A stretch of DNA of 42,712 nucleotides, taken from Candidatus Thorarchaeota archaeon. GTDB taxonomy: Archaea > Asgardarchaeota > Thorarchaeia > Thorarchaeales > Thorarchaeaceae. The notes below the pieces were generated by a model. That model was not told the DNA's origin. It saw only the letters and a program-made list of their open reading frames with translations, and did no database searches. Positions within the stretch are counted from its first letter, which is position 1, and each line of letters starts with the position of its first letter. Positions 1,483 through 14,743 of the stretch are shown here, piece after piece. The translations under genes and the position numbers were made by a program. The stretch is taken from positions 1 through 42,712 of the forward strand of contig JAEOTX010000013.1 of assembly GCA_016839605.1 (NCBI GenBank), written 5' to 3'.

Positions 1483-1810
1483 TGCTTTGACCACGCGACT
1501 CTGGTTCAGCTCTCTTGATAAAACTAGCGACGTGAACGTTGAATGCGTTATATGCTCATGGCCACCAGGTGACCAGAACTATGGTCACGAGTTCTCAGTA
1601 ATAGCATATCCAGTGACCACTCTATAGTATCTTGTGAACTAATATGGCACATGCAAGTAACGCACGCAAGTCACAGGTTAGGAACATTCGAAAGAATACA
1701 AGGGCTCCATCTACAAGAGCTATAGCGTACGCCTACGCCTATACCGCTTTAATACGATAGAGAGAGCATTGTTTCAATGCTAGCACTTATCTATGGAGCG
1801 ACTTCGCAAA

Positions 1811-3223
1811 ATGACTGACCAGGATGGACTACTATTGGAGAACGAGCCAGTGCAGACACAGGAGACGGAGTCAGCTTATCGCCGAGTCCTTGGACGAAAT
1901 GACTTCACTCGTCTTTGGGGTGGACAGCTCGTATCTAATGCAGGCACATCAATTAGCTATCTAGCACTTCTCTTCTTCGCCTTCGATATTTCAGGAACTG
2001 CCACTGCGATGGCTGTGCTCGCGATGGTAGAGGTGTTTCCACTCATTGCGTTTTCTGGACTTATTGGAGTGTACGTGGACAGATGGGACCGAAAGAAGAT
2101 CATGATAGGTGCTGACTTCTTCAGAGCTGCCCTCATCCTACTCTTCCCGTTTGTCACATTCTTCCCAGGTTATCTACCTCCGATAGTCTGGCTGTACATA
2201 CTGGCCTTCATCTATTCTACAGTAAATGCATTCTTCTATCCAGCACGTAGCGCGGCAATACCATCTCTTGTTGAGACCAAAGATCTTGTCACTGCAAACT
2301 CTCTTTCCACAATGACCTTCCAGATTATCTCCCTTGTCGTGACGCCTCTCGGTGGAGTTCTGGTTGCCCTTCTGAGACCTGATTACTTTCTTGCCTTCTT
2401 TATCGATGCTATGACCTTCATTCTTTCAGTAGTGTTTCTCTGGGGAATCAGAACCTCTCTCGTGCCCGAGAAAGTAGAAGATCGCGAGGCTTCTTTCGTT
2501 GATGAGATTATTGAAGGAGGTCGGATTATTCGCACTAGCGGATTGATGAGCTTCATCATTGGCATGTTCACGGTTCTGAGTCTAGGCTCAGGGATGGTCA
2601 ATGCTCTCGTGATTCCATTCTTTGAAGGCGAGTTGGGATTCGGCTCGATACAGTTTTCATTACTAATTAGTGGGGGTGCAATTTCTGGCCTTCTGTCAGC
2701 TATTTATCTTGGCAACAGGAGTCAATTGTCAAAGCCGCTCTTTCTCATAACGGCAGCAATGATTTGGGCTGGTGTTGTCATCCTTGGAATGTCACTCATA
2801 TCGGACTTTATCAGCGCCCTCTTGCTTTTCTCGTCAATCGGGCTAGTCAACGTGCTTCTTGGAGTGCCTGCCAACGCCTTGATTCAGGAGCTCATTGATC
2901 GAGACAAGCTTGGTCGGGTCTACTCATTCGAGAACATCATGATCAACATAGCTCTTGTCATGGGCATGGGTGTCGGAGGAGTGTGGGCTGATGCAGTTGG
3001 GTCTAGCCGACCGCCATTCTTCCTTGGAGGGCTTGTCATTGCATTGGTTGGTATTGTTGGAGCTCTACTTGTAGTAAGACTGCGTCTACATTCTCAGATT
3101 GATGAAATCAGATTTAAACGAGAAGCACAGATGATTGCGGCGACTCAGCTACAAAAGGAGGCTGTATTGGAGGACCTTCAAGAAATCGCAGATACAACTG
3201 ATGCTGATGCATCGGACTCATGA
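1811..3223 (+). CDS. MFS transporter (MFS_3/DHA3-like)
   Basis: About 12 hydrophobic segments, motif A GVYVDRWDRKK, FFYPARSAAIPSLV, second-half LGRVYS; start 1811 or 1793. Confidence 0.92.
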   Translation: MTDQDGLLLENEPVQTQETESAYRRVLGRNDFTRLWGGQLVSNAGTSISYLALLFFAFDISGTATAMAVLAMVEVFPLIAFSGLIGVYVDRWDRKKIMIGADFFRAALILLFPFVTFFPGYLPPIVWLYILAFIYSTVNAFFYPARSAAIPSLVETKDLVTANSLSTMTFQIISLVVTPLGGVLVALLRPDYFLAFFIDAMTFILSVVFLWGIRTSLVPEKVEDREASFVDEIIEGGRIIRTSGLMSFIIGMFTVLSLGSGMVNALVIPFFEGELGFGSIQFSLLISGGAISGLLSAIYLGNRSQLSKPLFLITAAMIWAGVVILGMSLISDFISALLLFSSIGLVNVLLGVPANALIQELIDRDKLGRVYSFENIMINIALVMGMGVGGVWADAVGSSRPPFFLGGLVIALVGIVGALLVVRLRLHSQIDEIRFKREAQMIAATQLQKEAVLEDLQEIADTTDADASDS

Positions 3224-3724
3224 GTCATTTGCAACGAGCCGCTTGAAGAAGGCCTCGTAATCTATCTCGAAACCCACTCTTGTTCCCGGCCGCACGCGAG
3301 TACCTGTGTCGTCAAACTCTACATAACGTTGTGTGGCCAGTTCCTTGAGATCTCCACGCACACCTCTTCTTGTCTTTCGTCTGAATTCTCGCACTCGATC
3401 TATTGACACCCATCCGCCTTCCTGATAGGAGAGTGTGATAACTACAAGAAGTGTGGCTGCGAGTCGATCTGGCAGAACTGATTCCTCTAGCAGCTGCTCA
3501 CTTCGAACCGTTGTGTCTAGATAGAAGACATGGTCGATTGGATTATGCCTGATCATTAGTCCGACCTCTGATAGTCTTCTGTCAAGGGCGCCTAGTCGCC
3601 GGAATAGGATGTGTCTTCCCGTGTCTTCGGGTAGACCAAGTGCGCCGAGCATGTCCTCAACCCCTGCCCCAATCGGATTTCCTGATCGAGTGAGAAGCCT
3701 CATGAGGATTATGTACTCGTTCAC
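3218..3724 (-). CDS. Kite protein (ScpB/Nse1/Nse3-like tandem winged helix), SMC accessory subunit
   Basis: 168 aa with two wHTH-like halves (LGALDRRLSEVGLMIR...FYL; LAATLLVVITLSY...LKELATQRYVE); GTG start overlaps the kleisin stop (GTGA); last gene of the SMC operon. Confidence 0.7.
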   Translation of the reverse strand: MNEYIILMRLLTRSGNPIGAGVEDMLGALGLPEDTGRHILFRRLGALDRRLSEVGLMIRHNPIDHVFYLDTTVRSEQLLEESVLPDRLAATLLVVITLSYQEGGWVSIDRVREFRRKTRRGVRGDLKELATQRYVEFDDTGTRVRPGTRVGFEIDYEAFFKRLVANDS

Positions 3725-4365
3725 GCTCCAGCCTCCCTTACAACTGTTCTATCCTCAAGATTATACTGGAGGGTGCCCTTTGATATCAGAATCACAAGAT
3801 AGAGAAAACGTTTCAGAAATTCTTCGAAATCGTTGTTAAGTATGAGATCATCAACAGGAATCTTCTCACCTGCAGGAACACCCGCTCCAAACTCTTGAGC
3901 ATCCTCCATTAGAATCGCGTCCTCTGACGGGAATGTGTAGCCGTTCGGTAATGGCGCAATGGCTGGGATTTTATCTTCGGGCGGTTCCATTCCAAGTTTG
4001 TCAATGAATTCCTTGATTCTTACTGATGAGCGGTCAAGCGTGGAATGATCTAGGTGCACTATCCCGATAGGGTGGTGATATGCTATCATTCCTGCCAAAT
4101 CTCGTGCAGATAGCGTCTTTAGCTTCGCCACATAGAGTTCTGGAGATGCAAGGACGCGAGCGAGTTCTTGAACCTTGTTCACCTTGGCTCCCAATACTTC
4201 ATTCAGCATCTCGTCAATGTCCAGTCTACTACTGACTTCAGCTGTGAGCCTCTGGAGCTTCTTGTACTCAGGAGTCAACTGTATCTCAAGTGGGTCGACT
4301 TTGCCAGAACGGACAGACTCAGCAATCCTGAGGATGGCTTCTGTAAAAGATTCGATTCCGCTCAT
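3721..4365 (-). CDS. Kleisin (ScpA-like) subunit of the SMC complex
   Basis: N-terminal ILRIAESVRSGKVDPLEIQL resembles the archaeal ScpA G.iDPw.I motif; C-terminal IPVDDLI...FLKRFLYLVILISKGTLQY resembles the kleisin C-terminal wHTH; GAGGTG SD precedes ATG 4365. Confidence 0.78.
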   Translation of the reverse strand: MSGIESFTEAILRIAESVRSGKVDPLEIQLTPEYKKLQRLTAEVSSRLDIDEMLNEVLGAKVNKVQELARVLASPELYVAKLKTLSARDLAGMIAYHHPIGIVHLDHSTLDRSSVRIKEFIDKLGMEPPEDKIPAIAPLPNGYTFPSEDAILMEDAQEFGAGVPAGEKIPVDDLILNNDFEEFLKRFLYLVILISKGTLQYNLEDRTVVREAGA

Positions 4366-4376
4366 CAGAATACACC

Positions 4377-7300
4377 TCACTGCCCAGAAAACTTAGGACT
4401 CTCCACTATTACTGAAGGGTCTGTTCCGCCAGGAGAGACCACGCCAATTCTCTTGTCAGCGTGTTTCAATAGATGTGTGCTTTTGGCAGGTGTGAAGAGG
4501 ATAAATTGACTCCTGCGAGAAGCATCATAGAGGAGTCTGCTTACCGACTCTGTATTAGTCGCATCCAGAAAGATGTCTACTTCATCCAAGGCATATGTAG
4601 GAGCAGGATTGAATCTTTGGAGAGCTAGTATCAATGCTATTGCAATCAGTGATCGTTCTCCTCCAGAGCCTTGACTTATCTCCCCAAACTCGTCACCTTT
4701 TATTCGAGACTTGAACTCCACACCATAGATTCCATCCCTGAGAGTAAGTGTGAACTTAGCTCGACCTGCAAACTCTGCGGTTGCCAGAATCTTGTTCACA
4801 TTCTTCTCCACTTTTGACAGAGTTGCGTTCATTCCATTATGATACTGATCACGAATGTGCTTCACAGTGGCTTCAGCCTCAAAGAGTTCAACTTTCAGAG
4901 TTTCCACCTGAACTATCAACTCTGAAAGCCGATCTTTGAGTCTAGACTCGGTATGCGCTACGCTCTCGGAAACATCCTCATAGTCATCAAGGAGGTGTCG
5001 AACGCGAATCAGCTCTTGCCGCGCAGTTTCAAGTGGTCTTATTTTGTCTGGTCTGATTGCCTTGTCAAGTTGCTGCAGAAGCCGCTTCTCTTCTTCTTCC
5101 ATGTTTCGCATCTGTTTTTGAGCCTGTAGGACCAATAGCCGATTGTCCTTAATCATGAGATTCAGTTCTACAAGTCGTTCGCCAACTGTCCGAAGTATCT
5201 CATTGATTCCACCAAGTTCTTCTTTCAGCCTGACTTCTTTGTCGTTGGTTTCCAACAGACCTAGCTCGAGGGTCTCGATCAATTCAGTAATGGAGGCTGC
5301 TTCACCCTTAGAATTCTTCATCTCTTCTCTAAGTTCTTTGACTTGTCCTGAAAGCATTCCAATGTTCTCATTGTGCGACTTCAATTCTGCTCTTCGTCGG
5401 TCTTCATCTCGCTCTGTTGCGTGGAGACCGCTCTCGACCTTTGAGAGATCACCTTGGAGTCTTCTTTGCTTCAGTCGAACTGCTGATCTTTGTCCAGCCA
5501 ACCTACTTCTCTCAGGAGGTTGCGAGCTGTCTAACTTTCTCAATTCTCTCTGAGCTTTTCCAATCTCTATCTGTAGGTTCTTTAATTCATCATCAAGGCC
5601 AACAATCTTCTCTTGGACATCTGGTATGCTATCCGAGAGTTTCTTCCTTCGCTCCCAAGTGCTGCTCCAACGTGTCATGTGCCCCTGCAGATCGAGGACT
5701 TCTTCCCTTTCATCGGTTGCTTTCTCGAGTTTGTCCATGACCTCTGTGACTTCCTTTCGAGAAATCGTTAGCTCCCTTTCGAGTTTCAGTAGACGTGTCT
5801 GGAGCGGTGCTGTGGACACTAATCCAGAGGGTTCCTTCCTTGGATGACTTATGACGCTCTTTTGAGTCACGTCTACAACAGACCCATCTCTTGAGACTGC
5901 CATGAGTCCAGCTCGGCTTGCTACACGTGAGGCAACTCTACCAGTGCTAGTGATGACGATATCTCCGAAGGCCTTCTTCAGGAGTTCTTTTTCATCATCA
6001 TCTAGTGCTAGGATATCCCATAGCCATCCTTCAATACCCTTTCCTGAGGGAAGGCTCGGATTTGACGTATCAGCCTCTTCTTTGAGCATGATAATTGGAG
6101 ATGGTGCACCCGACTTGTCTCTAAGCTTCTGTATCAGTGCGTAATCTGTCTGTTCACGCACAATGAATGCAAAGGGAAGATTACCTGAGAAGACCGCCTC
6201 CAGGGCATTTGAGAACTCGTCACTCTTCATTAACAACTCCACAAGCGGCCCGGTGACTGAGGTCAGTTTATGTTCAGTAATCGCTTCTTTCAGGTCTCTT
6301 ACTTCACTAGGGATGCGTTCTGAGGATTCGGAGAGCTTCACCTTGATTTCATCGATTTCTTTCTGAAGCTGCGATACTAGACTTGAGTTCTGAAACCTTT
6401 GTTCATTGAGTGTTGTTATCTCTCTCTCAAGCTGACCCTTTCGTCTAGCAAGTTCCTTTTCATCAGTATCCTCCAGAGCTTCCCATACATGAGCCCATTT
6501 GCTATCAATGCTCTGTAGCTCTGCCTCTTCGTTCTGCAGCCGCTCCTGATAGCTTCTCAACAGTAAGTCTTTCTTCTCAATATCACTCTGAAGTGATTTG
6601 TAGGCAATATATGCATCAGTGCGAACCGCATTCCATTCCTCAAAAGACGAGAGCTCTTGCTCGATTCTGTCTAGGTCAATCTCGATAGATTCTATCTCTG
6701 TACTAATCTCTCTCTTCTCCTCGAGATACTGCTCTTTATTGGCCGCTGCCCTCTCCAGCTCAGCTTTCGCTGCAATCTTCTCACGTTCTACTTTCTTTAC
6801 CTCGCGTTCTAGTTGACTGATCTCATTCACTGTGCCCTTGCTCTCATCCTCTAGCTTCTGCATCCGCCGTCTTTCTTCATCTATTCGTGCTTCTATCCCT
6901 CCGATCTCTCGCTGGAGTGAGTCGAGGCGAGATTCAAGTTTTGATGCTGCTTTTTGATTCTCCTCCATTTGACTTTCCAGTGACTTTTGCTCATCAAGAA
7001 CATCCACTAGACCTGATTCTCTATTCTCAATCTCATCTCTGACCTCTACCATTCTGGTACTGATGTCGTCAAGAGTTGCCCACTTTACCTCAATCTCAAG
7101 CTCTTTCTCCTCATTCTTGAGTGCCCGTTTCTTCTCTAGCCTTGTAAGGTCATGTTTTAGCAGCTCAAGCTCTCTCTCAACTACGCGTGACTCATCGAGT
7201 GCCGCCTGCAGCTTTTGCTGGCTTTGCGCAACTTCAGTTTCTTGAACTGCAATACGGTCCCGAACTTCGCTAAGCCCGGTGCCTTCCTCAACTAGGCGAC

Positions 7301-7745
7301 GAACCTCTATAGGATTCATCTCACGCAGTGCATTGATGCGTTCTTGAGGCATGAATACCAGTGTGTTGTCAATATCAAGACCAAGTGAACTGACAAGCTG
7401 CCTTAGTTCTGCTGCTTTCACACGTTTTCCATCTATGTAGGCCTTAGGTATTCCGTCACGATCAATCCGGCGCAGAAACTTGTGTCTGATTCCTCCATTG
7501 TTCACACTAATCTCAACTTCAGCAGATGTGGCTCCATGCCTGACAAAGTCACTCCATTTCGAGTAGCGCTCTTCTCTTTGATTTGATCCCAGTGCGAACT
7601 TGATTGCGTGAAACACTGAGGTCTTTCCAGAGCCATTTGGGCCAATGATGACAGTGAGTCCAGGATCAAAGCTCACAACTCCCTCATAAAACGAGAGAAA
7701 ATTCTTGAGCCTGACTGAGCCAATGTGGACCTTGGCCTTGCTCAC
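4377..7745 (-). CDS. SMC-family ATPase, SMC5/6-like type
   Basis: Walker A GPNGSGKT, Q-loop FMPQE, long coiled coils, central hinge (GPLVELL...ALEAVF...AFIV...D), signature SGGERS, Walker B/D-loop ALDEVDIFLD, QFILFTP; GGAGG SD before the GTG start. Confidence 0.95.
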   Translation of the reverse strand: MSKAKVHIGSVRLKNFLSFYEGVVSFDPGLTVIIGPNGSGKTSVFHAIKFALGSNQREERYSKWSDFVRHGATSAEVEISVNNGGIRHKFLRRIDRDGIPKAYIDGKRVKAAELRQLVSSLGLDIDNTLVFMPQERINALREMNPIEVRRLVEEGTGLSEVRDRIAVQETEVAQSQQKLQAALDESRVVERELELLKHDLTRLEKKRALKNEEKELEIEVKWATLDDISTRMVEVRDEIENRESGLVDVLDEQKSLESQMEENQKAASKLESRLDSLQREIGGIEARIDEERRRMQKLEDESKGTVNEISQLEREVKKVEREKIAAKAELERAAANKEQYLEEKREISTEIESIEIDLDRIEQELSSFEEWNAVRTDAYIAYKSLQSDIEKKDLLLRSYQERLQNEEAELQSIDSKWAHVWEALEDTDEKELARRKGQLEREITTLNEQRFQNSSLVSQLQKEIDEIKVKLSESSERIPSEVRDLKEAITEHKLTSVTGPLVELLMKSDEFSNALEAVFSGNLPFAFIVREQTDYALIQKLRDKSGAPSPIIMLKEEADTSNPSLPSGKGIEGWLWDILALDDDEKELLKKAFGDIVITSTGRVASRVASRAGLMAVSRDGSVVDVTQKSVISHPRKEPSGLVSTAPLQTRLLKLERELTISRKEVTEVMDKLEKATDEREEVLDLQGHMTRWSSTWERRKKLSDSIPDVQEKIVGLDDELKNLQIEIGKAQRELRKLDSSQPPERSRLAGQRSAVRLKQRRLQGDLSKVESGLHATERDEDRRRAELKSHNENIGMLSGQVKELREEMKNSKGEAASITELIETLELGLLETNDKEVRLKEELGGINEILRTVGERLVELNLMIKDNRLLVLQAQKQMRNMEEEEKRLLQQLDKAIRPDKIRPLETARQELIRVRHLLDDYEDVSESVAHTESRLKDRLSELIVQVETLKVELFEAEATVKHIRDQYHNGMNATLSKVEKNVNKILATAEFAGRAKFTLTLRDGIYGVEFKSRIKGDEFGEISQGSGGERSLIAIALILALQRFNPAPTYALDEVDIFLDATNTESVSRLLYDASRRSQFILFTPAKSTHLLKHADKRIGVVSPGGTDPSVIVESPKFSGQ

Positions 7746-7758
7746 GTGTCTATTCCTC

Positions 7759-8829
7759 CTACCTTCCCATTATTCTCCGAAGTCTGTCATTGTTCTTCTT
7801 TGCCCTCAACAGTCTCGTGAGTCGATCCTCTGGTGTTCCTTTCATCAAGAATGGATACTCGCTTAGATATTCAAGGTCCTTTGAAGACAAAGGTAGACTC
7901 GAATTGAGTGCCTCTATCACTCTTTGAGTTTCAGCGTAGTTCTCTCCAACAGCTAAGAGATAGAGTTGGTCCAGAAACTCGTCAGGATATTCAGTTTCTA
8001 CGGAACTAATGCTGGGGACTTTCAATCCTTGAATTCGGGTTACCATGTGCTCAAATGCCCGCTTTCTTCCCACAGGGAGAACTCCGCTATCAGCAATCAT
8101 CTGCTCCAGCTTTTCTCGAGGGATTTGACCTTCCTCTTGCTTCTGGCATAAGACTAGAGAAACGGCAAGGTGCTGTGTTTCGCTAAAACTCCATCCTTCA
8201 CTGAGTTCTGCAGCGTCTGTTGGACTGAGGTCCTCTCTGTCCTTGAAGGCGGCCTCAAAGAGGCGAACTCGGTCATCTAAGGTAGCAGATTCTGAGACGA
8301 ATGTATGATTGAAGACAGACAAGAGTTCAGCATCCATTAGTTGCGGCGTTGATGTAGAAGCTACAAGAAGCACCTCATCATTGACCCAACTGGTTCCTTC
8401 TGCTTCAATTCCTAGCAAAGCTGATTCTCGGCTCTGTGCGGGAGCAATATACTCAATTTTCTCAAGGTATAGAATTGAAGGGGCATTCCTCTTTGCAAAT
8501 TCGAACCAGAAACTAATGGATTCTCGTGTGCTATCAGGCCGTCCAAGAACTCTCTCCATTCTGGGACGCACAATATTGATTGGAATTTCCAGAGAGAGAT
8601 ATTGCACAAAAGCCTCAAAATCAGTGCCCACTCCACCAATCAATAGCACCCTTCCGCCAAAACTTAGGCCTTTCAACCGTAAATCGTCGCCGATCTTAGC
8701 TAATCGGATTATTGACTCATGGAAAGACTTGGCATTCTCTCTGACTGAATATTGGCCCAGACGGTCAGCATCTAGATCCTCGGGCCTTGACAGAATGACA
8801 GTGTCTGCGTAGATATCATCTTCTCCCAC
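7759..8829 (-). CDS. Degenerate (likely inactive) classical AAA-domain protein
   Basis: GGRVLLIGGVGTDFE (Walker A position, no GKT), FEFAKRNAPSILYLEKIEYIAP (Walker B position, DE replaced by EK), VLLVASTSTPQLMDAELL (sensor I/SRH, no Arg finger), GWSFSET lid; start reassigned to GTG 8829 behind a GAGGT SD (track gives 8958). Confidence 0.75.
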   Translation of the reverse strand: MGEDDIYADTVILSRPEDLDADRLGQYSVRENAKSFHESIIRLAKIGDDLRLKGLSFGGRVLLIGGVGTDFEAFVQYLSLEIPINIVRPRMERVLGRPDSTRESISFWFEFAKRNAPSILYLEKIEYIAPAQSRESALLGIEAEGTSWVNDEVLLVASTSTPQLMDAELLSVFNHTFVSESATLDDRVRLFEAAFKDREDLSPTDAAELSEGWSFSETQHLAVSLVLCQKQEEGQIPREKLEQMIADSGVLPVGRKRAFEHMVTRIQGLKVPSISSVETEYPDEFLDQLYLLAVGENYAETQRVIEALNSSLPLSSKDLEYLSEYPFLMKGTPEDRLTRLLRAKKNNDRLRRIMGR

Positions 8830-8969
8830 AGTATTACCTCTCCGGCAGGCTTGCCAGACCTGACAATTTCTGCAAATAATGTCTTCGAAGTCAACATGAT
8901 TCCGCGCCGTCCCATCGCGCTTATACGCAAGGATTAAGGCATGTCTTGCGACATCCATCTTGATTCGTC
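8830..8969. promoter_or_regulatory. Divergent promoter region shared by the SMC operon and the MoxR-vWA operon
   Basis: 140-bp gap between head-to-head starts; TATA-like TATAAG (minus strand, 8925-8920) and ATTAAG (plus strand, 8933-8938). Confidence 0.4.
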
Positions 8970-10682
8970 ATGAGCACCACGACAAGTAGCCTCCGTGATA
9001 AAGTCTGGAATGCGATTACAACTGTTGAGAGTCGAGGTCTCTTCGTTCATTCCACAGATCTCCCCATTCGGTTCAAGGAGAGAACACGGACTAGTGACAA
9101 GGTAGTAACACGACGTATACCTCAGATTGTTGGTGCCTGCGTTCTTAACACACTCGTGCCTCGTTCTGCAATGCTACTAGTGGGCGGACATGGAGGCGGC
9201 AAGACAACGCTAGTCAAACTTCTTGGGAGGATGATGACCGGGAAGAGTCTAGATGAGATCGATGATGGTATGCTCAGAGGCCACCCACAGCTTACTGAGG
9301 AAAAGATGGTGGCTACTCTTCGTCCTGGACCGCTCATGAAAGACGGTGTAGAGGTAGTAGTTTGGAGGAAGTTCGTGACAGGCTTTTGGAAGATGATTGA
9401 TGAGGTCAATAGGCTAACACCGCATGCCCAGAATATTCTCCTATCGATGCTCGCTGAAGGTGAGCTAAAATACTACGATGAGGTCAAGAAGTGTGAGGAG
9501 TATTGTCTATTCGCCACTCTCAACCCATCTGATGCTGGAACCTTTGATTTGGCTCCTCCTTTTCTGGATAGGTTCGGCATCGCTGTCCCCATAACTATGC
9601 CAACTATCAATGATCTTGAACTTATTCTCACAACACGAGACGAACGACTCTTTGGATATGATGAGTTGTGGCAGGTCCCAGCTATTCTCAGTGAAGAAGA
9701 CCTTCTCACAATCTGGAATCTAGCTGATAAGGTGCCTGTTTCAGCCAGAGCATCAGAATACATGCGCTCGTTGGTAAGGGAGTTTGGCGCTTGCATTCGC
9801 ACAGATAAGAGTCAGACTCATGAGCTAACTGTCGAAACTGGTCTGTGTGATGGCTGTCATTTCAATACAGCAAAGAGTGTCTGCAACAAGGTCATTATCC
9901 CTCTTAGTGTGCGAGCTGTGAAAGATCTAAATCGGTATACAAAGGCTGCGGCTTGGCTAGTTGGTGCTGGTGAGGTGGGTGTCGAGATAGTGAAATCACT
10001 AGCGCCACTTGTATTCTGGCATAGAACGCGTTTTACAGGTGACGAAATGGAACGGTCTCCTTTCTACGGTGATCGGTTCGCTTTCGCAAGTCAACTGGTA
10101 GAGCTTGCATCAACTAGGTTTGCTCAGCGAGAGGCAGCAATAGAGCTCATGGAGAAACTGAGGACTGGAACTGCTGATAAGGAGGCTCTCGATGAGCTTA
10201 AGGAAATGGGCAAGAGCGACCTCCTAGTCAAGATTGACTATGTGAACTTCGCAAAAGAGCTCAAGAAGAAGCGGTATGTGAAAATGATTCAGAGCATAGA
10301 GAAGGGTGTCAAAGACAAGGATGTGAGCAAGCTAACCGAAGTACACCTTGAGTTAATGAAAGACACTGACTTTCCCAACAGGAGTGTTCTGCTGAATAAG
10401 GTATCAGAATCTCTCCATAGACTTACGCTTTCCCAGTTCACCCTCACATTTGAACAATGGCAGGATCTTTGGACTGTAATCAGTCTGCGATATCCCCCAA
10501 TGACGCCCATTTTGAAAGAAACCCTTACACCCCCTAAGCGAAAGGTTGTTCGCACAGATGGACTCACTTTAGTCATCTATGTCACTGGGGATACCCCAGA
10601 ATCATCAGTCTTTCTCGAGATTTCGGGTGGTACTGACGCTTTAGAAATGAAAAAGGAGATTGAGTCAAACCTTAGCGAATAG
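8970..10682 (+). CDS. MoxR-like AAA+ ATPase with C-terminal extension
   Basis: Walker A GGHGGGKTT, Walker B MIDEVNRL, QNILLSML.EG, ATLNP..AGTF.L.PPFLDRF, lid SVRA; extra Cys cluster (C...CDGC...C). Confidence 0.9.
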   Translation: MSTTTSSLRDKVWNAITTVESRGLFVHSTDLPIRFKERTRTSDKVVTRRIPQIVGACVLNTLVPRSAMLLVGGHGGGKTTLVKLLGRMMTGKSLDEIDDGMLRGHPQLTEEKMVATLRPGPLMKDGVEVVVWRKFVTGFWKMIDEVNRLTPHAQNILLSMLAEGELKYYDEVKKCEEYCLFATLNPSDAGTFDLAPPFLDRFGIAVPITMPTINDLELILTTRDERLFGYDELWQVPAILSEEDLLTIWNLADKVPVSARASEYMRSLVREFGACIRTDKSQTHELTVETGLCDGCHFNTAKSVCNKVIIPLSVRAVKDLNRYTKAAAWLVGAGEVGVEIVKSLAPLVFWHRTRFTGDEMERSPFYGDRFAFASQLVELASTRFAQREAAIELMEKLRTGTADKEALDELKEMGKSDLLVKIDYVNFAKELKKKRYVKMIQSIEKGVKDKDVSKLTEVHLELMKDTDFPNRSVLLNKVSESLHRLTLSQFTLTFEQWQDLWTVISLRYPPMTPILKETLTPPKRKVVRTDGLTLVIYVTGDTPESSVFLEISGGTDALEMKKEIESNLSE

Positions 10683-10696
10683 GAGATTGCAGATAG

Positions 10697-12415
10697 TTGA
10701 CGGAAGCTCGTAGCTTGAGCAGAGGCGAATCATTGGGTCAGGTGGCCCGCCGCGCATGGGAAAGCGCTCTTTCAGACTTCTACTATCCACCGTTGCCTGA
10801 CGTTCACGTGGAACACATTGAGAATGCTAGCAGCTACTTCTATATTGAAACGGATGACTGGACTGTTCATCTCAACACTGCTGGTGTCCCACCACATCTT
10901 GATATGAACGAAGCAGAGCCCTATCTAAGGTCAGTCTGTCATCATGAGATTCAACACTACTTGGTCTGCCCCTATGATGCAGTGATGAATGGAATGATGT
11001 TTGCTGCAGCAAGACGTCATGTAAGCGACTCAACTGCATTGTTTGTGTGTAACCTGTTTGCTGACCTTGTAGTTGATTCTGCACTTCTTAAGAGATACAC
11101 CCGAATCACTCATTCTCGAATCACATCGAACATCTTTGGCTCTTCAATGATGGGCGAATCTCATAGTCCCCTGTGGCTATTGATTGTGTCCTGTTACAGA
11201 GCAATGTGGGGTTTTCCACTGCCATCAACCGTCAGTATAGACGAGGATACATACCAGGCTGCAGAGTGCATAATATCGATTAGCCGCAAATACATTGACA
11301 ATGAGAGAAGATGGCCAAAGGCTGTTGAGGAGATTGCAAAGATTGTAGCTGAATGGCAGCCTGATCCTGAAGAGCCCCTTGCAGGCTGCGGAGGACCTGC
11401 TGAGCCAGGTGAAGGAACAGATCCAGGAGCTGTTCTTATTCCTCTGGATGTGGATGCAGTAATGGGAAATCCTGTCGAGATCCGAAATGGTGATCGTGCG
11501 AAACGATGCATGACTGATACTGAGGACGAGGACCTCGAGAAGGAAATGGAGCGGCTAGCGGTTGAGGTGGAGCAAAGGGGTGGGGACCTCAGAGATTTGG
11601 AAGCTGTCTATCTGGTTGCTGGAATTGGTTCGAAACGGAAGCAATGGATTAGGTTCTGGTACAGGGCAAAGGTCCGCGGCCTCCTGAGGTTTGATGTGCG
11701 AGAGAGGAGAATTGCGGGCTCCACACCACTATCCATCCAAGTATGGCGCTTAGGAGATCCCCTTGAAGAGCTTGATGTTGTGCAAAGCCTACAAGCCTTT
11801 CCGATCCTAGTACCCAATATGTCTACTAGGCGTTGGTTCAAGACAGAGATGTATGGGGAGTTTGAATCTGAATCTCTTCCTGATCTGTTACTTGTGATTG
11901 ACTCCAGCGGCTCCATGACATGGTCGATGCGTGGCAAGACCGTATCTGGGCCATATCATACTGCGTTGGTTTCTGCATTTGCTGCAATGGATGTAGCGTT
12001 AAGAAAAGGGAGTAGAGTTGCGGCTATCAACTTCTCTGATGGCACTCGTGTATGTGAATGGACGAGAGAACGCTCAACCGTTGAGAAAATACTTCTTGCA
12101 TATCAGGGTGGAGGTACAGTTGGACCGATTAGGAAGATTTCAGATGCTTGTGATTCAGCTGGTTCAGGAGTAATGGTCCTCCTGATAACTGATGCAGAGA
12201 TAGCAAATTGGGGCCGTCTTGTCAAATCTATCGCCAAACTGACTCGTAGAGGACACAAGTATTTCATGTTTCATATGGAGTCGCCCGGTTATGAGATGGA
12301 AGACTCTATTCACGGTGCTCTTACTAAAGCGGGAGCTCATGCTATTCCGGTTGAGTCCGTGAAAGACTTGCCTGGTCTGGTCGTGAGAGAGGTTCGAAGA
12401 GTTTATGGGTTATAG
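10697..12415 (+). CDS. HExxH metallopeptidase-like domain + C-terminal vWA domain (DUF2201-like MoxR partner)
   Basis: HHEIQHY (HExxH) followed by NLFADLVVD; MIDAS DSSGS, GGT and ITDA motifs; AGGAG SD before the TTG start, 14 bp after the MoxR stop. Confidence 0.85.
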   Translation: MTEARSLSRGESLGQVARRAWESALSDFYYPPLPDVHVEHIENASSYFYIETDDWTVHLNTAGVPPHLDMNEAEPYLRSVCHHEIQHYLVCPYDAVMNGMMFAAARRHVSDSTALFVCNLFADLVVDSALLKRYTRITHSRITSNIFGSSMMGESHSPLWLLIVSCYRAMWGFPLPSTVSIDEDTYQAAECIISISRKYIDNERRWPKAVEEIAKIVAEWQPDPEEPLAGCGGPAEPGEGTDPGAVLIPLDVDAVMGNPVEIRNGDRAKRCMTDTEDEDLEKEMERLAVEVEQRGGDLRDLEAVYLVAGIGSKRKQWIRFWYRAKVRGLLRFDVRERRIAGSTPLSIQVWRLGDPLEELDVVQSLQAFPILVPNMSTRRWFKTEMYGEFESESLPDLLLVIDSSGSMTWSMRGKTVSGPYHTALVSAFAAMDVALRKGSRVAAINFSDGTRVCEWTRERSTVEKILLAYQGGGTVGPIRKISDACDSAGSGVMVLLITDAEIANWGRLVKSIAKLTRRGHKYFMFHMESPGYEMEDSIHGALTKAGAHAIPVESVKDLPGLVVREVRRVYGL

Positions 12416-12424
12416 CTTAGGATT

Positions 12425-13867
12425 TCATTCTTCTTCTTTTTCTGATGTCGGCTGTGGAAGACCCAGCAGCTCTGCATGAATTGAGCGTGCAGCTATTCTT
12501 CCTGCACCCATCGCTTCAATCACTGTGGCGGAGCCAGTCACGATATCTCCACCTGCCCAAACTTTCGAAATGTTTGTGCGATTGTTCTCATCAACAACAA
12601 TGTAACCCCATTTGTTGAGGTCAAGATCTGGCATTGTCTTGGTCAGTAATGGGTTGGCACCTGCACCGATAGAGATGATGACCTGATCACACTCAAATTC
12701 GAAGTTAGACCCCCCGATGGGTATAGGTCTACGTCTGCCACTCGCATCAGGCTCGCCAAGTTCCATGCGGATGCACTCCATTCCGGAAACCTTTCCATCC
12801 TTACCCAGTATTTTCACAGGGTTGGACAAAAGCTGGAACACAATGCCTTCTTCATCAGCATGATGGACTTCTTCTCCTCTTGCTGGTAGTTGTTCCCGTG
12901 CCCGTCTATAGACGATTGTGACCTTCGCACCTAGCCGCTTAGCTGTTCTTGCAGCATCCATTGCAACGTTCCCGCCACCAACAACACAGACGTGCTTTCC
13001 TTGAGGAAGGGGTGAGTCATAATCTGGAAACAGGTACCCCTTCATGAGATTGGACCTAGTGAGATACTCGTTTGCAGACAAGACCCCGTTGAGTTCTTCT
13101 CCTTCAATTCTCATGAACCAAGGAAGACCCGCACCTACCCCAATATAGACCGCATCAAATTCCTCAAGGATTTCATCCATCGTAATGGTCATTCCGGCAA
13201 CTACGTTCAACTCAAAGTTGACTCCTTGCTGGACTAGGTAGTCTACCTCTGCCGCAACAATTTCCTTAGGGAGTCGAAATTCAGGGATTCCATAAACAAG
13301 GACGCCGCCAGCTTCATGGAGTGCTTCAAATACTGTGACTGCATGACCTTGGAGGATGAGGTCTCCTGCTACAGTCAGACCTGAGGGTCCGGATCCAATT
13401 ATTGCTACTTTCTTCCCAGTTGGTTTGGGCTTAGGTGGAATCTCAACCAGATTGTTGTTCCTCTCATAGTCAGCCACAAAACGCTCTAGTGCTCCAATAG
13501 AGACTCCTCCATATTTCTTGAATAGAGTGCAGTCTCCCTCACATTGAGTTTCCTGCGGGCATACTCGTCCAGTGACTGCCGGAAGAACATTCGTTTCCTT
13601 GATTAGTTTGGCTGCTTCTCCAAATTTCCCTTCGCCAACCAGTTTGATGAATTCAGGTATTTGGACAGCAACAGGGCATCCGTGAACACAGGGTTGCTTT
13701 CTGCAATCAAGGCATCTTTTAGCCTCTTCCATAGCCTGTTCAGGGGTAAGCCCCAATGGGACCTCCTCGAAGTTTGCTGCACGTGCTGAAGGGTTCTGCT
13801 CAGGCATTTTGGCTCTGGGGATGGCCATTCGTTCCTTGGGTGTGAGTCCATCTTTCCTCTTGCTCAC
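12425..13867 (-). CDS. nfnB: NfnB/SudA large subunit (GltD-like NADPH flavoprotein)
   Basis: EAKRCLDC...CVHGCP, GRVCPQETQCE, GSGPSGL, YGIPEFRLP, GGGNVAMD, YRR, GGDIVTGSATVI. Confidence 0.93.
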   Translation of the reverse strand: MSKRKDGLTPKERMAIPRAKMPEQNPSARAANFEEVPLGLTPEQAMEEAKRCLDCRKQPCVHGCPVAVQIPEFIKLVGEGKFGEAAKLIKETNVLPAVTGRVCPQETQCEGDCTLFKKYGGVSIGALERFVADYERNNNLVEIPPKPKPTGKKVAIIGSGPSGLTVAGDLILQGHAVTVFEALHEAGGVLVYGIPEFRLPKEIVAAEVDYLVQQGVNFELNVVAGMTITMDEILEEFDAVYIGVGAGLPWFMRIEGEELNGVLSANEYLTRSNLMKGYLFPDYDSPLPQGKHVCVVGGGNVAMDAARTAKRLGAKVTIVYRRAREQLPARGEEVHHADEEGIVFQLLSNPVKILGKDGKVSGMECIRMELGEPDASGRRRPIPIGGSNFEFECDQVIISIGAGANPLLTKTMPDLDLNKWGYIVVDENNRTNISKVWAGGDIVTGSATVIEAMGAGRIAARSIHAELLGLPQPTSEKEEE

Positions 13868-14743
13868 TTAGGCCCCCTCCTTGCGATTCTTTGCACATTT
13901 ATTCACAGCGCCATCCATCTGGGTTCTGTAGAATTGGTATGCCATGTTTTCTTCTGCAACGTACGCATGTTTTCGAGCAAAGACCATGTCCCAGTTCACT
14001 TTGTGACCATCAAAATCTGGACCATCGACACAGGCGAACTTCGTATTGCCATCTACTTCCACCCTACAGATTCCGCACATGCCAGTTCCATCCACCATCA
14101 ACGTGTTCATGGCTACAATAGTAGGGATGTTGTGCTCCTTGGTGCCCCTTGAGGAAACCATCATCATGTATGTACAACCGATGAAATGGGCATAGTCGAT
14201 TTTGCCCTCCTTCTCTAGGATATATGGCAACGCTTCAGGAACATGTCCCCTGAGGCCTCTGGACCCATCAGCCGTTACAATGTATAATTCGTCAACTACT
14301 TCTCGCAGCTTCTCCTCATTATAGACGATATAGGTGGTGCGTGCCTCAAACAGCCCGATGACTCTATTGCCTGCCTCTTTGAATGCCTTTGCCAAAGGAT
14401 AGATGGCACCAAGGCCATAACATCCGCCACCTAAAAGGACAGTTCCGAATTTCTCAATCTTTGATGGTCTTCCTAGTGGTCCAACTAATGTATGAATAAC
14501 ATTGCCTGGTTTCATACGAGTGAGTTTCATTGTAGAAACCCCGGCTTCCTGATAGAAGATGGTGATAGTGCCATCCTCTGGGGACCAATCAGAGAGTGTG
14601 AACGGAATTCTCTCGCCGACCTCATCAGGTATTATTATGACGAACTGACCAGGCTTGGCTCGCTTGGCTATCACTGGCGCAGACAGAACAAGCCTATGCA
14701 CGTTAGGCACTACTTCTTCATTGATTATGATCTCCCCCTTCAT
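13868..14743 (-). CDS. nfnA: NfnA/SudB small subunit (ferredoxin-NADP reductase-like, [2Fe-2S])
   Basis: PGQFVII, GERIPFT, GPLGRP, MVDGTGMCGICRV, CVDGPDFDGH. Confidence 0.93.
   Translation of the reverse strand: MKGEIIINEEVVPNVHRLVLSAPVIAKRAKPGQFVIIIPDEVGERIPFTLSDWSPEDGTITIFYQEAGVSTMKLTRMKPGNVIHTLVGPLGRPSKIEKFGTVLLGGGCYGLGAIYPLAKAFKEAGNRVIGLFEARTTYIVYNEEKLREVVDELYIVTADGSRGLRGHVPEALPYILEKEGKIDYAHFIGCTYMMMVSSRGTKEHNIPTIVAMNTLMVDGTGMCGICRVEVDGNTKFACVDGPDFDGHKVNWDMVFARKHAYVAEENMAYQFYRTQMDGAVNKCAKNRKEGA

Follow-up and report, generated by a model that had tools for sequence, protein, structure and literature searches.

A candidate SMC5/6-related operon led by a catalytically dead AAA protein, and the MoxR/vWA gene pair beside it, in a Thorarchaeial genome

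Six neighbouring genes on contig JAEOTX010000013.1 of a Candidatus Thorarchaeota archaeon (assembly GCA_016839605.1) are described here. The window, by which we mean the whole stretch of 42,712 nucleotides that was analysed, is contig C61 of a 3.08-Mb metagenome-assembled genome (MAG) with a completeness of 80%. Four of the genes lie on the minus strand. They encode a catalytically dead AAA protein of the classic clade with a conserved C-terminal helical domain (7759..8829, 356 residues, in a frame open to 8958), a second SMC paralogue, presumably of the SMC5/6-related type (4377..7745, 1122 residues), a kleisin-like subunit (3721..4380, 214–219 residues, with ATG 4365 as the probable start) and a kite subunit of tandem winged-helix type (3218..3724, 168 residues). 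Across a divergent intergenic region (8830..8969), two plus-strand genes encode an intact MoxR-class AAA+ ATPase with a Cys/His cluster insert (8970..10682, 570 residues) and a protein with an HExxH N-terminal domain and a C-terminal von Willebrand factor A (vWA) domain carrying a metal ion-dependent adhesion site (MIDAS) (10697..12415, 572 residues).

The initial annotation of this locus placed six open reading frames (ORFs) at these coordinates, and both the ORF listing and the translations agree with it. Each gene has orthologues at 29–93% identity in dozens of relatives' genomes and, judged by this conservation, all six are real, although public records label every gene involved merely a hypothetical protein. 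No island signature is seen in the composition of the window. The minus-strand genes are closely packed, as had been annotated: 13 bp separate the AAA stop codon from the SMC start, 11 bp separate the SMC stop codon from the kleisin ATG at 4365 (the start used in the 214-residue database entry P0008), and the kleisin and kite genes share 4 bp. The gap between the MoxR and vWA genes is 14 bp. The 140-bp divergent gap of the annotation holds only with GTG 8829 as the start codon of the AAA gene, but the frame of this gene runs open from there up to ATG 8958, a start that would leave only 11 bp before the MoxR ATG at 8970. The 43 extra residues gained in this way are partly conserved within the genus; the short form of about 356 residues is found in the majority of other genera. 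No TATA-like AT-rich box was obvious on inspection of 8830..8969 by eye.

The window SMC protein possesses the two head halves, the coiled coils and the hinge that define an SMC protein. It matches SMC_N (PF02463) with 142 bits over residues 8–1104 and SMC_hinge (PF06470) with 30.8 bits over residues 496–608 (cut-off 22.5), and its translation carries a Walker A motif (GPNGSGKT), a Q-loop (PQE), a signature motif (SGGE) and a Walker B motif (LDEVD). Its score of 286 bits against TIGR02169 lies below the equivalog cut-off of 729, so it is not the canonical prokaryotic Smc. A canonical Smc (TIGR02169, 857 bits) is encoded on contig C106 of the same genome, where the genes for ScpA (28.9 bits) and then ScpB (114 bits) come after it, and the window therefore holds a second, paralogous SMC set, the proteins of which fall below the thresholds of TIGR02169, PF02616 and PF04079.

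The 168-residue protein is verified, at the level of its predicted structure, as a tandem winged-helix kite. Its AlphaFold model has a predicted local distance difference test (pLDDT) score of 85, and the top 21 matches of this model to the PDB (Foldseek) are kite-family chains, one of them an unnamed C. tepidum protein, with E values from 5.7e-5 to 5.8e-3. They include ScpB (3w6j, 2z99, 4i98), JetB (8as8_C, 8dk1_E), MAGE-G1/Nse3 (5hvq_D), MukE and Nse1/Nse3 (7dg2). Sequence models are weak for this protein, with ScpB matched at 3e-4 in one of 14 family members and DUF4194 likewise in one of 14. The kite gene is conserved 3' of the kleisin gene in all lineages.

The kleisin-like gene lies between those of SMC and kite in every lineage. 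In a feature search of a protein atlas, the nearest named clusters carry Nse4_C (Bathyarchaeota, 0.94; eukaryotic Nse4, 0.85), and alignment with the ScpA of the same genome (hhalign) is co-linear over the C-terminal winged-helix part, with an E value of 5.7e-4 and a probability of just 29.5%. There is no direct Pfam match to the window kleisin, and single-sequence Pfam scans of 12 kleisins were empty. Searches of the genome with the PF08743 (Nse4_C) and PF02616 (ScpA) models did not match the window kleisin, and a homologue search with the kleisin profile returned just full-length, apparently Thorarchaeia-type hypothetical proteins lacking a Pfam domain, with no bridge to Nse4. Its position, the Nse4_C-linked features and the low-probability ScpA alignment make this protein a probable kleisin.

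Using profiles built from orthologues and inspecting neighbourhoods in many genomes, we find the order AAA, SMC, kleisin, kite in Thorarchaeia (family f1, 49 loci), their sister family f2, f7, Baldrarchaeum (f8), the Lokiarchaeia-type families f9 and f24, f19 (a complete genome) and two unplaced metagenome contigs; in f22 just the AAA–SMC pair was detected. At the loci inspected (the Thorarchaeial window and Loki-type, f19 and metagenome loci), neighbouring genes of the operon either overlap, by 4 bp at most, or are spaced by no more than about 20 bp. The operon was found once per genome, and its divergence tracks taxonomy across several Asgard classes. The annotation had grouped these four genes as one unit; their recurrence in the same order across Asgard families bears this out, and we regard the four-gene operon with high confidence as a predicted functional unit.

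The three-gene core is not new. Operons in which a second SMC is joined by a kleisin resembling Nse4 and a kite resembling Nse1/3 have been reported in TACK and Asgard archaea by Yoshinaga & Inagaki (PMC8665677) and by van Hooff et al. (bioRxiv 10.1101/2024.01.07.573240, section 8). Text searches of both articles found no mention of AAA, MoxR or neighbour genes, and a literature search found no paper on an AAA or MoxR gene accompanying the Asgard SMC–kleisin–kite complex. The AAA partner, which the annotation had counted among accessory genes not known from an SMC complex, is apparently new.

The first gene of the operon encodes an AAA fold that has lost its catalytic residues. The window protein scores a weak 21.5 bits against PF00004, and its model (pLDDT 86.6) resembles FtsH, VCP D2, PAN, Vps4 and spastin. 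Though the fold matches, the motifs of an active classic-clade AAA protein are missing: GGVGTDFE stands at the Walker A site and LYLEKIE at the Walker B site, confirming the degeneracy already noted in the annotation, and the further motif sites read STSTP and LSVFNH. The Walker A lysine, the Walker B DE pair, the sensor-1 asparagine and the arginine fingers are all substituted in the Thorarchaeial, f2, Baldrarchaeal, f7 and Loki-type proteins, so that the protein is dead in f1, f2, f7, f8, f9 and f24. It is intact in f19 and f22, where the positional orthologues have GTGKT and IDEFD, retain all AAA motifs and score 76 and 124 bits against PF00004. Because these keep their Walker A and B motifs, we take the proteins of the Thor, Baldr and Loki lineages to have decayed from an active ATPase. 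The SMC that follows the live AAA gene in the complete f19 genome (G063, L138:7070-9577) is only 835 residues long, with much shorter coiled-coil arms; its hinge is kept, and kleisin and kite genes follow.

Conservation of the AAA protein is highest in its last 85 or so residues. A search of 1.84 billion representatives with a profile of this C-terminal domain yields only 109 clusters, in which the domain is almost always at the C-terminus, and the two most divergent long members that were examined are encoded directly upstream of SMC, kleisin and kite genes. A complex prediction with the dead AAA protein as partner of the SMC head (N-half and C-half) and kleisin, with kites, arms and hinge omitted, gave 0.00, which is not evidence either way.

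On the opposite strand, the MoxR protein is intact, as annotated, with Walker A GGHGGGKT and Walker B IDEVNR. It matches AAA_5 (48.6 bits, cut-off 22), AAA_3 (27.7 bits, cut-off 27) and AAA_lid_2; together with the Walker motifs and the vWA gene just downstream, these matches assign it to the MoxR class. A C-x17-CxxCH-x7-C cluster and the Walker motifs are kept in all lineages. Its profile finds midasin AAA domains and the MoxR structure 2r44 in the PDB. The best PDB matches are eukaryotic midasin AAA modules (49.9 bits), midasin itself combining an AAA_5 array and a MIDAS domain in one protein, and this Asgard-specific pair of MoxR and MIDAS proteins may merit comparison with the origin of midasin.

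The partner protein contains HEIQH, a DSSGS MIDAS motif and the likewise conserved GGGT and ITDA, and the MIDAS residues DxSxS...T...D are conserved in its orthologues. VWA_2 is matched in nine of ten orthologues (best E value 8.5e-6); with 19.6 bits, the window protein falls short of the cut-off of 27. The HExxH residues (His83, Glu84 and His87) are invariant in Thorarchaeia and f2 and kept in Baldrarchaeal, f7 and Loki-type loci. At two f20 loci (L130 and L131) they are replaced by RRGIAYY or RRIIAYY, and a downstream FADLVVD motif is also altered. The annotation had called this protein a metallopeptidase with a vWA domain. Both motifs are present; the putative peptidase label derives from the HExxH motif alone. 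The domain has no Pfam match, a PDB profile search returned nothing useful for it, and DUF2201_N is absent from the genome. Atlas searches gave weak leads to viral clusters, one of them named M48.

The distribution of the pair was surveyed in 150 Asgard genomes with a completeness of 85% or more. The pair is present in f1 (33 of 37 genomes), f2, f7, f8, f9 (24 of 34), f20 (two of four) and f24, and was not found in 16 other families; outside Asgard MAGs no member of the MoxR/vWA family was found. Across Asgard archaea the pair is by far the better conserved, at 49–93% identity versus 29–86% for the SMC genes. In f24 (L113, L118, L119 and L132) the pair is convergent to the canonical Smc–ScpB genes, at distances between a few hundred bp and about 1.8 kb, which could be chance or a hint of a tie to SMC complexes generally. 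In most Thorarchaeial genomes, the vWA gene adjoins genes for a GltD-like Fer4_20/pyridine-nucleotide oxidoreductase and a DHODB-type Fe–S subunit (window 12425-14743, minus strand), so that plain inheritance accounts for much of the local synteny. On the other side of the locus, an MFS gene (1793-3223) separates the kite gene from a small minus-strand ORF (1123-1482) that encodes a TFIIB-type zinc ribbon (CPICG...CTNCG, PF08271, 32 bits) and a probable winged helix.

We favour, with a probability of roughly 60%, the reading that the locus holds two separate conserved units, an SMC5/6-related ring operon and a MoxR/vWA remodeller, that are neighbours by happenstance in this lineage. The initial annotation had instead joined all six genes in one module, in which the AAA, vWA and peptidase proteins would load, remodel or cleave the SMC ring. 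In the version weighed here, the MoxR/vWA pair would act on an SMC5/6-like ring with the dead AAA protein as recruiting adaptor. The neighbourhood and co-occurrence analysis that it had proposed as a check divides this claim: the four-gene unit is linked in all families in which the second SMC was found (in f22, the AAA–SMC pair), but the MoxR/vWA pair is linked to it only in f1, f2, f7 and f8. At least ten genomes of f9 and f24 have the MoxR/vWA pair and the operon on separate contigs, and MoxR was not found in eight f9 genomes that keep the SMC operon, four of which are 99–100% complete. Members of f20 encode the pair in genomes where no second SMC is detected at E ≤ 1e-70. Unrelated genes have also been inserted between the units, a TauE gene in one Thorarchaeial genus and a CGGC protein gene in f2. 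In the latter family even MoxR and vWA are parted, by a gene for a 1164-residue protein with a DUF7743 domain (L041:12896-16390, minus strand); elsewhere their spacing is at most about 220 bp and mostly below 40 bp or overlapping. The f24 arrangement, in which the pair adjoins the canonical Smc–ScpB genes instead, likewise speaks against a dedicated six-gene module. Several observations nevertheless weigh against the two-unit reading. In raw scores against the PDB, the window SMC profile ranks Smc2 (217 bits) and Smc3 (195 bits) above Smc5 (141 bits) and Smc6 (128 bits). At E ≤ 1e-20 the canonical paralogue has zero Smc5/6 matches, and the window SMC as a single sequence likewise has zero; raw PDB scores cannot decide this affinity, and the protein is presumably SMC5/6-related on the basis of the literature and of the Nse4-like kleisin lead. 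The two units are adjacent in four families and in two arrangements, divergent in f1 and f2 and as an uninterrupted co-directional string of MoxR, vWA, AAA, SMC, kleisin and kite genes in f7 and f8, and unrelated genes do not usually stay together to this extent over so great an evolutionary distance. Every family with a dead AAA protein (f1, f2, f7, f8, f9 and f24) has the MoxR/vWA pair, which was not found in those with a live one (f19, none of six genomes; f22, none of nine). The pair with an intact HExxH motif is found only in genomes that also have the second SMC operon, and in f20, where this operon is missing, the vWA protein has lost the motif. Finally, all six genes were lost as a block, together with the MFS gene, by a clean deletion of about 10.8 kb in a Thorarchaeial genome that is 96% complete (G018; L043, G018:C7:31000-50000 compared with window 1600-12425). 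The GltD homologue there has come to lie directly beside the homologue of window ORF 1123-1494, so that the zinc-ribbon gene is kept, and both MoxR and the second SMC are missing from two further genomes of the same genus (G104 and G196). A further genome (G004), considered as a case of truncated MoxR with no SMC, was discarded on account of a scaffold gap of 100 N. One local inversion can explain both orientations, and since the families are related the pattern of co-occurrence may reflect just one or two evolutionary events. A working link between the MoxR/vWA pair and the ring is possible, and we hold the six-gene module as a tentative reading, less probable than that of two units. We are as doubtful of its mechanistic detail, in which MoxR would supply the lost ATPase activity, the vWA MIDAS would take hold of an acidic stretch in the kleisin or AAA protein, and cleavage of the kleisin by the HExxH domain might open the ring. 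An evolutionary variant seems unlikely: that the AAA protein was once an active remodeller (a loader or unloader) that died into an adaptor in the Loki–Thor–Baldr lineage, with MoxR and its MIDAS/zincin partner taking over ring remodelling or proteolytic opening. If true, the organisms most closely related to eukaryotes would have a prokaryotic counterpart to regulated kleisin release.

The annotation also raised the idea that the AAA, vWA and peptidase proteins act as effector of an SMC-based sensor of extrachromosomal DNA. In a defence reading of this kind, the SMC complex would sense extrachromosomal or viral DNA in the manner of Wadjet, and the AAA, MoxR, vWA and HExxH proteins would be the effectors in place of JetD. 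MoxR–vWA pairs are found in conflict systems. The module is dispensable, being cleanly absent from the Thorarchaeial genus g3 and not found in G137 and G259; for the second SMC complex in particular, dispensability follows from its clean deletion in one Thorarchaeial genus. The eukaryotic SMC5/6 complex, according to the abstract of PMC9458440, restricts viral and episomal DNA. Against this, PADLOC gives zero matches for the accessory genes and for the SMC only generic ABC/SMC-head matches, with JetC models at 1e-8 to 1e-9; PADLOC and NCBIfam together leave five of the six proteins unnamed. The absence of a JetD-like nuclease, noted in the annotation, is borne out, no other PADLOC defence protein is present either, and the locus does not have the make-up of a Wadjet (JetABCD) system. 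The operon was found once in each genome and keeps its GltD/DHODB-like housekeeping neighbours throughout the family, and its spread over several Asgard classes with divergence tracking taxonomy and an unremarkable composition is atypical of mobile defence islands. Vertical inheritance, stable housekeeping synteny and the absence of an effector nuclease lead us to reject a defence island as the main explanation and to regard an effector role in a DNA sensor as improbable.

What was observed is which genes are present, how they are ordered and distributed, and the folds and motif states of their products; from this we infer the following contacts and activities for the two separate units that we favour. 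The SMC presumably homodimerizes via its hinge, the kleisin would bridge the two ATPase heads and a kite dimer would sit on the kleisin. The AAA-fold protein encoded by the first gene is probably unable to bind or hydrolyse ATP; in Thor, Baldr and Loki lineages it appears to retain only the fold and a conserved C-terminal domain of three to four helices. It is most simply a non-catalytic accessory subunit, an adaptor or regulator, which may dock on the ring through that domain. The ring complex most likely serves chromosomal DNA, in repair, junction resolution or organization, beside the canonical Smc–ScpAB. MoxR and its HExxH/MIDAS vWA partner would form an Asgard-specific remodeller that is self-contained and driven by ATP, and perhaps acts as a protease.

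Among known prokaryotes, Asgard archaea are most closely related to eukaryotes, and the second SMC complex of these archaea has been proposed as a forerunner of SMC5/6. We know of no described SMC complex with an AAA partner that is an active enzyme or a pseudoenzyme according to lineage. The leading AAA gene offers a testable handle on the loading, regulation and release of the ring. The contrast between live and dead AAA proteins constitutes a natural experiment, in which the adjoining MoxR/vWA pair is a candidate replacement for the lost activity.

Comparison with known systems places the two units as follows. Like the archaeal SMC5/6-related operons, the window encodes a second SMC beside the canonical one, followed by a non-ScpA, putatively Nse4-like kleisin and a non-ScpB kite; unlike the three genes published, a fourth gene for an AAA protein, dead or alive, always leads the operon. 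The eukaryotic SMC5/6 complex (Smc5/6, Nse4, Nse1/Nse3, Nse2 and Nse5/6) has a kleisin and kites, as the window set probably does, and lineage-specific accessory subunits that regulate the ring, whereas here there would be an SMC homodimer with a single kite gene, and the RING, SUMO-ligase and alpha-solenoid subunits are absent. To our knowledge, no AAA-fold subunit occurs in known SMC5/6 complexes. With Smc–ScpAB the window set has in common the three-part ring, the kite matching ScpB best and the kleisin aligning weakly with ScpA, but the true Smc–ScpA–ScpB is encoded elsewhere in the genome and the window proteins fail the family thresholds. Wadjet (JetABCD) and MksBEFG likewise add an accessory gene to those for SMC, kleisin and kite, and the window kite has JetB among its structural matches; in place of the JetD/MksG nuclease, the extra genes here are those for the AAA protein and the MoxR/vWA pair. 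That pair resembles RavA–ViaA, CbbQ–CbbO, NorQ–NorD, CobS–CobT and the chelatases, and in fused form midasin, in that an AAA_5/AAA_3 ATPase adjoins a MIDAS vWA protein. It differs from these remodellers in the Cys/His cluster insert and the C-terminal extension of about 200 residues of its ATPase, and in a vWA partner that carries an unclassified HExxH N-terminal domain rather than DUF2201_N.

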